64,000 nt of DNA from the NCBI RefSeq assembly GCF_965641715.1, contig NZ_OZ282453.1, one strand, 5' to 3'. Made by a program: the position numbers and the translations under genes. This document shows, one piece after another, positions 31,145 through 33,260 of this stretch (the stretch's first letter is position 1; every line of letters begins with the position of its first letter). The notes beneath the pieces are model-generated. The model had not been told where the DNA came from. It was given only the letters and a program-made list of their open reading frames with translations, and made no database searches. The stretch comes from Escherichia coli (GTDB taxonomy: Bacteria; Pseudomonadota; Gammaproteobacteria; Enterobacterales; Enterobacteriaceae).

Positions 31145-32029
31145 TCAATTATGTATTTTTACAGCAAGACAACCACGAACAAATTCAGGATTAAAATGTT
31201 TTACCGACTCCCCAACATAACCCAAATCAAGCGAACTAATTTGTGCCATTTCTTTCTCTGTCAGTGAGAAATCCCAGATAGCAAAATTTTCTTCGATACG
31301 CTGTTGATGTGTCGATTTCGGAATAACGACCACTCCCCGTTGAATATTCCAACGCAGAATGACCTGAGAAATCGATTTTTGATGGGCATCTGCAATACTC
31401 TGAAGCAGATTATTTTCAAAGGGTTTATGTCGTCCACCACCTAACGGAGCCCATGCTTCAGGCTGTACGTTATAATACTTCATGGTTGCCAGCGCCTCTG
31501 GTTGGGCAAAATAGGGATGCAACTCGACCTGGTTGACCATCGGTTTAACTCTTACCGTTTCACAAAAGTTCGCCAGAACATGAGGATAGAAATTGGAAAC
31601 CCCAATTGCTTTTAATTTGCCCTCTTCATAGGCATCTTCGAGTGCACGCCACGCACTGAAATAATCGCGCATAGCCTGGTGCAATAAATAGAGGTCGAAG
31701 TATTCTAGTCCCGATTTTTTCAATGACGCTTCAATACCTGCTTTTGCCGTATCCTGATTCAACATATCCTGCACCCACAATTTAGACGTTATAAATAACT
31801 CATCTCGGGTACATAAACCTTCAGATATAGCTTCACTAACGGCTTCACCGACGGCATCTTCATTACCGTATACCGCTGCAGTGTCGATGAGTCGATAACC
31901 CGTGCGGATAGCGTTCAACACTGACTGTTTGCACACGTTTTTATCGGTAACCTGAAAAACACCAAATCCCATCATCGGCATTTTCAGATTGTTACTTAAT
32001 ACGGAAAATTCCACTGTCAGTCCCTCCAT
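31145..32029 (-). CDS. Aldo-keto reductase
   Basis: 294 aa; AKR N-terminal signature LSNNLKMPMMGFGVFQ and LIDTAAVYGNE; probably the intact form of a gene fragmentary in K-12. Confidence 0.8.
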   Translation of the reverse strand: MEGLTVEFSVLSNNLKMPMMGFGVFQVTDKNVCKQSVLNAIRTGYRLIDTAAVYGNEDAVGEAVSEAISEGLCTRDELFITSKLWVQDMLNQDTAKAGIEASLKKSGLEYFDLYLLHQAMRDYFSAWRALEDAYEEGKLKAIGVSNFYPHVLANFCETVRVKPMVNQVELHPYFAQPEALATMKYYNVQPEAWAPLGGGRHKPFENNLLQSIADAHQKSISQVILRWNIQRGVVVIPKSTHQQRIEENFAIWDFSLTEKEMAQISSLDLGYVGESVKHFNPEFVRGCLAVKIHN

Positions 32030-32396
32030 TAGGCATGAACAATGAGTCTACGTTAAAACGTAACCTCAAATTAGTATGTGGATTTTGATATCACTTATGC
32101 AAAAATTTCATTAATAATAGGGGACTGTAATTTCTCTATTATGGGAAAAATGAAGCAGACACAATGAGATTAATGACAAGCACAAAATTGCCCGATGCGC
32201 TATGATTATCATGCCGACCAGAGAATCGCAATATATTGAATTTTCGCTATTTTTTAGGCGAGATAAGTTCCAGCATGCACAACCAGCGTTTGTCAAAAAT
32301 CTGAGATACTGTCAGTCGCCTGGCCTCGGACCTTTCTGTTTTTGATACACTTATAGCCTTTGTCATACGAAAAATGTGCGAAATGGCGAAGGGTAA

Positions 32397-33260
32397 ATGG
32401 AGAATGTTATGATCAGGCAGAAGATTTTGCAGCAACTCCTGGAGTGGATTGAGTGCAATCTCGAGCACCCTATCTCAATCGAAGATATCGCACAGAAATC
32501 TGGCTACAGTAGACGCAATATCCAGCTCCTGTTCAGAAACTTCATGCATGTGCCGCTGGGAGAATACATTCGCAAACGAAGACTTTGCCGGGCAGCTATT
32601 CTTGTCCGACTGACAGCGAAATCTATGCTTGATATTGCACTATCTTTGCATTTTGATTCACAGCAGTCATTCAGTCGTGAATTTAAAAAATTATTCGGAT
32701 GCACTCCCCGAGAATACCGGCTCCGTGATTATTGGGATCTGGAAAATATCTTCCCTCCATTTTTAGCACGCCAACATCAAAAAACTGATTGCACATTAAT
32801 CCATTTCCCAGAAACACGTATTTTTGGCAATGCATTTAAATATGATGTTGAAATATCGAATAAATCACCGGATGAAGAAGTTAAACTGCGACGTCATTAT
32901 TTAGCCAGATATATGAAGAATTTTAAGACGGATATCTATTTCGTCTCAACGTTTAAACCATCAACAAAGTCGGTCGATTTACTCACAGTTGAAAGCTTTG
33001 CTGGTACGGTATGTGAACATGCTGACATGCCGAAAGAGTGGACAACGACCCGAGGACTTTATGCCTCTTTCCGTTATGAAGGAAACTGGAAACATTACTC
33101 TGACTGGGTGCGGAACATCTATCTAATAGAGTTGCCTGCAAGAGGGTTAGCCAGAGTGAACGGCAGCGATATTGAGCGCTTTTATTACAATGAAGATTTC
33201 GTAGAAAAGGATTGCAATGATGTTGTTTGCGAAATTTTTATCCCCGTTCGTCCTCTTTAG
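32397..33260 (+). CDS. ykgA: Rob-like AraC-family regulator (N-terminal HTH, C-terminal effector domain)
   Basis: 287 aa; AraC HTH in the first ~110 residues (SFSREFKKLFGCTPREYR); start could instead be ATG at 32409. Confidence 0.75.
   Translation: MENVMIRQKILQQLLEWIECNLEHPISIEDIAQKSGYSRRNIQLLFRNFMHVPLGEYIRKRRLCRAAILVRLTAKSMLDIALSLHFDSQQSFSREFKKLFGCTPREYRLRDYWDLENIFPPFLARQHQKTDCTLIHFPETRIFGNAFKYDVEISNKSPDEEVKLRRHYLARYMKNFKTDIYFVSTFKPSTKSVDLLTVESFAGTVCEHADMPKEWTTTRGLYASFRYEGNWKHYSDWVRNIYLIELPARGLARVNGSDIERFYYNEDFVEKDCNDVVCEIFIPVRPL

Follow-up and report, generated by a model that had tools for sequence, protein, structure and literature searches.

Full-length copies of an aldo-keto reductase gene and of the Rob-like regulator gene ykgA, both pseudogenes in K-12, in an Escherichia coli chromosome

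Introduction

In 2000, YkgA was named as a fourth paralogue of MarA, SoxS and Rob, and a passage in PMC2064960, citing Martin, Gillette and Rosner 2000, describes it as a SoxS/MarA/Rob homologue whose function and targets were unidentified. Its function has stayed open since then, partly because the K-12 copy is truncated. The surrounding locus was drawn in 2012 as the 'fdeC cluster', a group of genes that includes putative regulators and reductases and is truncated in K-12 (Nesta et al., PMC3324786), and PMC3118216 mentions the ykgA-ykgQ intergenic region by name. The window analysed here, a stretch of 64,000 nucleotides from E. coli, carries full-length copies of both an aldo-keto reductase (AKR) gene and ykgA (Table 1). 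The initial annotation of this window proposed that the strain retains a functional regulator-reductase pair next to the reactive-chlorine genes rclRABC, and implied that this is rare. Do the two genes form a unit, and is their intact state unusual? Our analyses indicate that they are probably two intact, selectively maintained chromosomal genes of E. coli that K-12 has lost, and that they are neighbours, not a proven module.

Table 1. Features of the locus (window coordinates)
Feature	Coordinates	Strand	Evidence or remark
rclR	27630-28484	-	Neighbouring reactive-chlorine cluster (27630..30985)
rclA	28683-30035	+	Context only, not part of the unit
rclB	30129-30380	+	Context only, not part of the unit
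rclC	30383-30985	+	Context only, not part of the unit
AKR gene, intact form of K-12 ykgQ (probable start)	31145..32014	-	ORF, PF00248, catalytic tetrad, RefSeq match
Divergent AKR-ykgA intergenic region	32015..32408		394 bp here vs 248 bp in typical E. coli
Mosaic tract, Escherichia sp. E1V33 type	32100..33260		Informative sites, sliding identity
Degenerate REP/BIME-like (presumably RIP-like) repeat	32161..32306		146 bp, about 70% identical to a dispersed repeat
ykgA, full-length Rob-architecture AraC/XylS regulator (probable start)	32409..33260	+	ORF, Pfam, Rob alignment
fdeC/eaeH, inverse-autotransporter adhesin gene	33385..37635	-	Tail to tail with ykgA
Marbox-like box, then TATAAT 18 nt later	37825..37868 (box 37868-37849, TATAAT 37830-37825)	-	Upstream of fdeC

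Two full-length genes where K-12 carries pseudogenes

The two longest open reading frames, at 31145..32029 on the minus strand (294 aa) and 32397..33260 on the plus strand (287 aa), are present exactly as the initial annotation gave them. Their identity as a divergent AKR gene and Rob-architecture regulator is borne out by the reading frames, the Pfam domains and an end-to-end alignment with Rob; the rcl cluster lies on one side of the pair within the window and fdeC/eaeH on the other. Both proteins are probably somewhat shorter than these frames. Translation of the AKR gene probably starts at GTG 32014 (289 aa), since this codon has a GGAGG 8 nt upstream, is the start used by PGAP in an E. 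coli sharing the 5' sequence, and gives the 289-aa length of the orthologues in other genera. For ykgA, ATG 32409 (283 aa) is the probable start: one other E. coli allele has ACG in place of the upstream ATG, and the internal ATG is preceded at 6 nt by a GGAG.

The initial annotation was right that K-12 carries only remnants here: RefSeq annotates both K-12 genes as pseudogenes, and alignment to K-12 mapped the disrupting lesions in each, the K-12 copies being disrupted and not identical to the reading frames of the window. The AKR remnant (ykgQ, 'aldo/keto reductase, missing N-terminus') is a 129-nt pseudogene that retains about 20% of the gene, namely its 3' end, a 49-bp internal piece and its first codons; the segments corresponding to window positions 31274-31364 and 31414-31998 are deleted. 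K-12 ykgA (b0300, 'helix-turn-helix, missing C-terminus') lies between this remnant and fdeC and abuts an IS3 transposase gene. It is cut by IS3 after codon ~218 (window 33063), beyond which the IS3 replaces the sequence kept in the window, and the same IS3-associated deletion also takes out window positions 33064-36759 of fdeC. Over codons 1-218 the K-12 protein and the window regulator share 92% amino acid identity, with an identical DNA-binding domain. Position and high identity thus make the window regulator the orthologue of b0300, and K-12 ykgA and ykgQ are positional orthologues of the two full-length genes.

The implied rarity of the intact state did not hold, as this is the majority state in E. 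coli. Among 5426 complete E. coli genomes, the AKR gene is full length in 2933 and the regulator gene in 4615 (at a BLAST coverage of at least 80%, a measure of coverage alone, such that some of these reading frames may be broken); 2919 genomes, more than half, have both. UTI89 and O157 are among those with full-length matches. The exact proteins of the two genes recur on 36 and 74 contigs. The exact YkgA protein is recorded in E. coli as 'helix-turn-helix domain-containing protein', with close cluster relatives recorded as 'YkgA', and the AKR shares 99% amino acid identity with an E. coli protein annotated in RefSeq. The intact genes are therefore a common state of the species, annotated in RefSeq, and their K-12 pseudogenes are catalogued; as such they are not new and matter little.

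The locus is prone to loss, with the AKR gene deleted in ~2,100 genomes and IS insertions in others, and one could imagine that the genes of this strain are intact by chance and decaying functionally as in K-12. We consider this extremely improbable. At a dS of ~0.5, dN/dS is 0.06 for the AKR gene in comparisons with two other Escherichia species, while ykgA gives 0.014 over its N-terminal part and 0.16-0.21 over its C-terminal part. These values indicate purifying selection; the catalytic tetrad and the helix-turn-helix (HTH) motifs are intact, and the recurrence of the exact proteins on many contigs also speaks against decay. Since both genes are under purifying selection, it is reasonable to call them functional.

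The aldo-keto reductase

The AKR matches the Pfam family Aldo_ket_red (PF00248) over residues 30-267 with 147.5 bits, against a cutoff of 24. Its Asp-Tyr-Lys-His catalytic tetrad is complete (D49, Y54, K83 and H117 in the 294-aa numbering); these residues are invariant in an alignment with two other AKRs, and they also align with those of the structures 1VP5 and 4MHB. Its nearest structural relatives are 1VP5 (E = 5e-85), YtbE (3B3D, 3e-72), YvgN (3D3F, 3e-68) and DkgA (1MZR, 1e-57). A second AKR encoded in the same window is only 45% identical to it. The protein, probably of 289 aa, belongs to the DkgA/YvgN/YtbE/TM1009-like group, and by analogy with this family it most likely uses NADPH to reduce reactive aldehydes or alpha-dicarbonyls to the corresponding alcohols.

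The regulator YkgA

The N-terminal domain of YkgA, of about 100 residues, contains the two HTH motifs typical of the MarA/SoxS/Rob subfamily (Pfam HTH_18, 70.5 bits; HTH_AraC, 58.8 bits) and matches SoxS (E = 3e-26), RamA (1e-20) and MarA (3e-18). It is fused, as in Rob, to a GyrI-like effector domain (PF06445, residues 177-285, 32 bits against a cutoff of 26), and residues 9-285 align with residues 5-288 of Rob (E = 1e-37). YkgA thus has the architecture of Rob and is the fourth paralogue of the MarA/SoxS/Rob set. The domain composition suggests that it is most likely a ligand-responsive activator, in which a small molecule would be bound by the GyrI-like C-terminal domain and the double HTH would occupy a 20-bp asymmetric site and recruit RNA polymerase.

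In the DNA complexes of MarA and Rob, a Trp and an Arg of helix 3 (in the motif SKWxLQR) read the GCAC of the marbox. YkgA carries Arg and Leu at these positions (R36 and L40 in the 283-aa numbering), its helix 3 reading SRRNIQLLF against SKWHLQRMF in Rob and SKWYLQRMF in SoxS, and presumably differs from that of MarA as well. With these two residues replaced, the preferred site of YkgA is probably not the canonical marbox. The motif GYSRR is invariant in 13 proteins of the YkgA clade, down to 36% identity, and E. coli alleles do not differ from one another in the DNA-binding domain (aa 5-102).

A mosaic ykgA allele

The intergenic region is longer here than in typical E. coli (Table 1) by an element that we tentatively assign to the REP/BIME (RIP-like) family, whose members have two inverted REP palindromes flanking an A/T-rich core and occur as dispersed intergenic copies. 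In a near-identity search of the locus, none of the complete E. coli genomes covers this element (best coverage 94%); Escherichia sp. E1V33 and E. whittamii do have it. Relatives of ~160 bp and ~70% identity are dispersed through the genomes, at a median of 13 places in each, for instance downstream of glpD. Alignment with the glpD-downstream copies shows REP-like arms and a AATATATTGAATTT core, the right arm being 13 nt short in the window.

The element lies in a mosaic tract of 1.15 kb that spans the right half of the intergenic region and all of ykgA. In the AKR gene (31150-32014), 91 informative sites are E. coli-like and 5 are E1V33-like; between 32161 and 33260, 124 are E1V33-like and 15 E. 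coli-like, and the pattern switches back at 33261. In sliding comparisons the tract is 97-98% identical to E1V33 against 84-90% to E. coli, and all 5045 of the 5045 matching complete genomes are less than 90% identical over its full length. In this strain, an E1V33-type allele of ykgA and its upstream 300 bp thus adjoins an AKR gene of the ordinary E. coli type, and the junction between them is located inside the intergenic region. The overall identity of the locus to E. coli, ~93%, had raised the suspicion that the window came from a non-coli Escherichia. This was rejected because the bet genes are 99% identical and positions 26000-32160 98.5-99% identical to E. coli; divergence is confined to the ykgA tract and to parts of fdeC.

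Scanning 32015-32408 with sigma-70 promoter and terminator consensus models gave no match (overall counts being below the shuffle expectation), and neither Rfam (E <= 1) nor a search for marbox-like sites with at most two mismatches returned anything in this region. The sole Rfam match, a CRISPR-DR model inside the AKR coding region, was dismissed as a chance hit.

Neighbours rather than a module

Regulators are classically encoded divergently from their targets, with one control region for both, and the two genes share a single 394-bp region. It is therefore conceivable that they form a dedicated module, in which YkgA would sense an electrophile or carbonyl compound and activate the AKR gene, whose product would detoxify that compound. 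They stand side by side in three lineages, E. coli, Escherichia sp. E1V33 and E. whittamii, and purifying selection acts on both. Nearly all genomes with a full-length AKR gene carry both (2919 of 2933), which linkage alone explains. Several observations nevertheless make such a module rather unlikely. The regulator is kept in ~1,700 complete E. coli genomes that have lost the full AKR gene, and its closest orthologues outside the ykg locus, in Salmonella (L012), L013 and strain E69 (L008), have no adjoining AKR gene. The AKR orthologues of Klebsiella, Salmonella salamae and Vibrio (81-85% identity), for their part, have unrelated neighbours of LysR/MFS, TetR/SDR or AraC_N type, and no conserved AKR-regulator pairing was found outside Escherichia in the genomes examined. 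In the present strain a recombination breakpoint falls within the shared control region itself, which also lacks a marbox-like site and a copy of the box found upstream of fdeC (the best copy, with 7 mismatches in 19, being at chance level).

The AKR gene adjoins rclC in E. coli, and chlorinated aldehydes would be plausible substrates of an AKR, such that both genes might be thought to act in the reactive-chlorine response and to be co-regulated with rclRABC. This is very improbable. The linkage is not conserved: Escherichia sp. E1V33 and E. whittamii both have ykgE directly beside the AKR gene and ykgA, without rclRABC in between. The AKR gene converges on rclC and hence is not in the rclABC operon, and K-12 as well as the ~2,100 other genomes kept rcl after losing the AKR gene. 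What stands of the proposed functional pair is that both genes are intact and under purifying selection; a unit tied to rcl is not supported, and the case for a regulator-reductase pair beside rcl is weak. Two selectively maintained neighbours remain the preferred reading.

A marbox-like promoter box upstream of fdeC

The other neighbour of ykgA, the adhesin gene, is a more constant partner. The closest orthologues of the regulator outside the ykg locus have an FdeC-like adhesin gene as their tail-to-tail neighbour (those of Salmonella L012, L013 and strain E69 mentioned above), and the pair recurs in four genomic contexts. Upstream of fdeC, a block (C/T)TTGCACAAAA(A/T)GCTAAATT, followed at 18 nt by TATAAT, does not vary between E. 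coli, Salmonella L012 and L013, despite flanks with an identity of only 70-77%. It fits the marbox consensus with a single mismatch and contains the canonical GCAC half-site; its geometry is that which Martin et al. in 1999 reportedly described for class II promoters. We consider this box a lead as a candidate target of the regulator.

YkgA could then be the cognate activator of fdeC in a two-gene cassette, with the AKR gene as a bystander, and the loss of both ykgA and fdeC in the single IS3-associated deletion of K-12 fits this idea. We nonetheless hold it to be unlikely. Tail-to-tail genes have no control region in common, more distant members of the YkgA clade lack an adhesin neighbour, and marbox-like matches are not above chance over the window as a whole (23 observed, 16.7 +/- 4 expected). 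Moreover, the box is a canonical marbox and YkgA lacks the Trp and Arg that read GCAC, so that MarA, SoxS or Rob would be at least as likely to bind it. In addition, GCTAAATT is similar to an H-NS nucleation motif, and Easton 2014 reportedly describes FdeC as regulated by H-NS.

A bolder version of the same idea, which we regard as improbable, would make YkgA-fdeC a horizontally mobile two-gene unit with two inputs. A host-derived small molecule would bind the Rob-like YkgA, which would switch on fdeC from the conserved class II marbox-like promoter (37868-37825), and a helix in the fdeC leader (UUUUCUGA/UCAGGAAA) would sequester the Shine-Dalgarno sequence in the manner of a fourU thermometer, adding temperature control. 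If true, this would account for the silence of FdeC in vitro and its induction by contact with the host, and would provide the first YkgA target, 25 years after the protein was named.

Setting this version aside and returning to the reading of two maintained neighbours, the analysis offers three points at which experiments can aim: most natural isolates have a full-length ykgA under strong purifying selection, the DNA-reading helix of YkgA is unlike those of Rob and SoxS, and its sole conserved neighbour is the gene of a vaccine-candidate adhesin, fdeC, with a conserved marbox-like promoter.

Comparison with known systems

The locus of the window is the one that Nesta et al. drew in 2012 as the 'fdeC cluster'. 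The regulator and the AKR were not analysed in that paper (PMC3324786), to which the present work adds the mosaic allele, the difference in helix 3 and the box that is conserved in the fdeC promoter.

The AKR shares its length class and catalytic tetrad with DkgA and DkgB, with YvgN and YtbE of B. subtilis and with TM1009 of T. maritima (1VP5). It falls below the equivalog cutoffs of both DkgA (NF008598, 234.5 bits against 425) and DkgB (163.9 against 327).

YkgA has the same two-domain architecture and length as Rob (PDB 1D5Y, 7VWY/7VWZ), and helix 6 is nearly identical in the two proteins (FDSQQSFSREFKK vs FDSQQTFTRAFKK). It is, however, not a Rob orthologue: it misses the Rob equivalog cutoffs (RobA, NF012228, 201.4 bits against 380; PRK15121, 179 against 426), and its C-terminal domain is poorly conserved with that of Rob. 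MarA, SoxS and RamA have a double-HTH domain homologous to that of YkgA, but lack an effector domain and are controlled through their abundance, whereas YkgA combines a GyrI-like domain with a different helix 3.

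The intact gene pair and its K-12 remnants

The window is E. coli, since its bet genes are 99% identical to those of E. coli genomes. The open reading frames (ORFs) of an aldo-keto reductase (AKR, the intact form of the K-12 pseudogene ykgQ) and of an AraC-type regulator (full-length ykgA) were both recovered at exactly the coordinates of the initial annotation. The AKR ORF matches Aldo_ket_red (Pfam, 147.5 bits) and its best NCBIfam models are DkgA and DkgB, both scoring below the equivalog cutoff. The regulator had been described as combining an N-terminal HTH with a C-terminal effector-type domain, and Pfam indeed matched HTH_18, HTH_AraC and a C-terminal GyrI-like domain; among NCBIfam models RobA ranks first, followed by SoxS, RamA and MarA, every score being below the equivalog cutoff. 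The pair is flanked on one side by ykgEFG, rclR and rclABC, and on the other by the inverse-autotransporter adhesin gene fdeC/eaeH.

Coordinates of features in the window
Feature	Coordinates	Strand	Size	Remarks
AKR ORF	31145..32029	-	294 aa	
Regulator ORF (ykgA)	32397..33260	+	287 aa	
Repeat element	32161-32306		146 bp	AKR-ykgA intergenic region, inside the mosaic tract
fdeC/eaeH	33385-37635	-	1416 aa	
fdeC 5' leader	37636-37824	-	~190 nt	conserved, structured
Marbox-like box	37868-37849	-		(C/T)TTGCACAAAA(A/T)GCTAAATT, upstream of fdeC
Further aldo-keto reductase	38201-39052			within 38187-44491
Further aldo-keto reductase	39079-40068			within 38187-44491

Both proteins likely start slightly inside the longest ORF. 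For the AKR, the likely start is GTG 32014 (289 aa), because GGAGG is located 8 nt upstream, PGAP places the start there in an E. coli that shares the 5' sequence, and orthologues from other genera have 289 aa. For the regulator it is ATG 32409 (283 aa), because GGAG is located 6 nt upstream and another E. coli allele has ACG in place of the upstream ATG. The longest ORF of the nearby rclA (28683-30035) has 450 aa, versus 441 aa (1326 nt) in the RefSeq annotation of other E. coli; the 9 additional N-terminal codons are probably not translated.

The proposal that K-12 carries only remnants at this locus agrees with RefSeq, in which both genes are pseudogenes: a 129-nt 'aldo/keto reductase, missing N-terminus' and a 'helix-turn-helix, missing C-terminus'; the latter precedes IS3 and a truncated inverse-autotransporter gene. 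BLAST mapped the breakpoints in both genes, neither ORF being intact in K-12. The AKR stretches kept are 31145-31273, a 49-bp piece (31365-31413) and everything from 31999 on, and therefore 31274-31364 and 31414-31998 are missing; the ykgA match ends at 33063 (residue 222 of the ORF), and 33064-36759 is replaced by IS3.

The remnant names ykgA and ykgQ are used in PMC3118216, where an AtoC ChIP site (ACTATACGGAAAATTCCACT) is reported in the K-12 'ykgA-ykgQ intergenic region'. This site (6407-6426 in the K-12 locus, L001) straddles the K-12 deletion junction, joining ~31411-31413 to 31999-32015 in window terms; in intact strains it falls mostly within the first codons of the AKR. A 6.3-kb segment (38187-44491) is also missing from K-12. 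It encodes two further aldo-keto reductases, two LysR regulators, an alpha/beta hydrolase and an OYE-family flavin oxidoreductase and, with the AKR, makes the neighbourhood of fdeC rich in carbonyl/electrophile reductases.

Of 5426 complete E. coli genomes, 2933 have a full-length AKR, and most of the others retain just the K-12-type remnant (20% coverage). The regulator region reaches at least 80% coverage in 4615, and both genes are present in 2919. In a third, widespread state of the locus, the AKR is deleted with regulator and fdeC intact. RefSeq already annotates an 'aldo/keto reductase' and a 'helix-turn-helix domain-containing protein', the exact window proteins have E. coli records on 36 and 74 contigs, and close relatives in the same 90% cluster carry the source name 'YkgA'. 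PMC2064960, citing Martin, Gillette and Rosner (2000), presents YkgA as homologous to MarA, SoxS and Rob and gives its function and targets as unidentified, and Nesta et al. (2012, PMC3324786) described the locus as the fdeC cluster, which contains putative regulators and reductases and is truncated in K-12. Since annotation and literature already cover these basic facts, the intact gene pair is real but not new.

Selection on the two genes and a mosaic allele of ykgA

The AKR has its catalytic tetrad (D49/Y54/K83/H117), and the solved proteins closest to it are T. maritima TM1009 (1VP5, E = 5e-85), YtbE, YvgN, trypanosomatid PGF synthases and DkgA. Measured against its counterparts in Escherichia sp. 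E1V33 and E. whittamii, it has a dN/dS of 0.06 (dS 0.55). Against mainstream E. coli alleles (dS 0.5-0.57), dN/dS is 0.014 for the DNA-binding domain of the regulator and 0.16-0.21 for its effector domain; residues 5-102 are identical among every E. coli allele compared. By these substitution ratios, selection clearly maintains both genes.

Over 26000-32160, the identity to ordinary E. coli is 98.5-99%. The full-length identity of the regulator gene is below 90% versus all 5045 matching complete genomes, and the YkgA protein is 97% identical to that of E1V33. Informative sites are 91 E. coli-like versus 5 E1V33-like in the AKR (31150-32014), 15 versus 124 in the repeat element and ykgA (32161-33260) and 25 versus 2 in 33261-33384. 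The switch is sharp, with a left onset at ~32100, within the shared control region, and a right breakpoint at the ykgA stop codon; together with the region upstream of it, ykgA therefore forms a 1.15-kb mosaic tract (32100-33260). This tract is 97-98% identical to E1V33 and just 84-90% to all complete E. coli genomes, and with a dS of about 0.55 it is as far from E. coli alleles as the adjoining AKR is between species.

The repeat element is also present in E1V33 and E. whittamii, and in a near-identity search of the locus none of the complete E. coli genomes covered it. It is a degenerate member (about 70% identity) of a dispersed ~160-bp repeat with REP-like inverted arms flanking a AATATATTGAATTT core, aligns with copies downstream of glpD, and is presumably a BIME-1/RIP-like remnant. 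The fdeC gene is itself a patchwork of alternating blocks: 34501-35000, for example, is E. coli-like (52 sites versus 1), 33385-34500 is mixed or E1V33-like, and at the 3' end the identity to each reference compared is about 85%.

Genomic association of the regulator, the reductase and the rcl cluster

The initial annotation saw here a functional regulator-reductase pair beside the reactive-chlorine genes rclRABC. This interpretation is partly supported: the genes are intact and selected, but synteny leans against their pairing and against a tie to rcl. Activation of the AKR by YkgA is unlikely, though retained because divergent genes with a common control region are suggestive. Against it, the closest regulator orthologues beyond the ykg locus, in Salmonella enterica L012 (68% identity), L013 (64%) and strain E69 (83%), lie tail to tail with an FdeC-like inverse-autotransporter gene, with no AKR upstream, and more distant homologues are located in unrelated islands. 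Some 1,700 E. coli genomes have ykgA but no full AKR. AKR orthologues 81-85% identical occur in Klebsiella, Kluyvera, Enterobacter, Salmonella salamae and even Vibrio, beside LysR-hydrolase-MFS, SDR/TetR, or MFS and AraC_N-type genes. A scan of 32015-32408 found neither a marbox-like site nor a copy of the fdeC box.

In E1V33 and E. whittamii, ykgE directly precedes the AKR and ykgA without rclRABC (L006 5434-5753 and L007 5702-5753), so that the rcl cluster is a between-species insertion/deletion polymorphism at this locus. One distant Salmonella YkgA-clade homologue (45% identity; L023 34-4783) adjoins PycTM, AGS_C, SMODS and S_4TM domain genes, surroundings that suggest a defence island.

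A conserved promoter and leader upstream of fdeC

The minus strand of 37825-37868 carries the marbox-like box CTTGCACAAAAAGCTAAATT and, 18 nt on, AAAAATATAATCCCG (TATAAT). The box departs from the marbox consensus at one position. Its sequence does not vary among E. coli, E1V33, E. whittamii, strain E69, Salmonella L012 and L013, although the flanks in L012 and L013 are just 70-77% identical. The orientation and spacing of the box match those of class II mar/sox/rob promoters. The leader has no match in Rfam; its fold has z = -3.4, and the consensus fold of seven sequences contains eight compensated pairs and a helix in which UUUUCUGA pairs with the Shine-Dalgarno UCAGGAAA. The leader also has a terminator-like hairpin (CCGGG...CCCGG) followed by a five-U run. 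The predicted UUUUCUGA/UCAGGAAA helix is similar in geometry to a fourU thermometer. Regulation of FdeC by H-NS and temperature has been reported (Easton 2014).

The conserved box and promoter, the leader and the conserved ykgA-fdeC adjacency suggest the testable idea that a Mar-family activator, possibly YkgA, drives fdeC. That YkgA itself is this activator is quite unlikely, and a full cassette, in which YkgA would activate fdeC with a host-derived ligand and the leader would act as a thermometer, is less probable still.

YkgA compared with Rob and SoxS

The best-supported model is that YkgA would be a Rob-like, ligand-responsive class I/II activator, because it aligns with Rob over its full length, end to end. 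In DNA complexes of MarA and Rob, the Trp and Arg of helix 3 contact the GCAC half of the marbox. All 13 YkgA-clade proteins compared, drawn from Escherichia, Salmonella, Klebsiella, Citrobacter, Enterobacter, Siccibacter and Edwardsiella, share the 'GYSRR' signature. Helix 6 of YkgA is conserved, unlike helix 3, which reads SRRNIQLLF in YkgA versus SKWHLQRMF in Rob and SKWYLQRMF in SoxS; judging from these residues, YkgA probably recognises a variant site.
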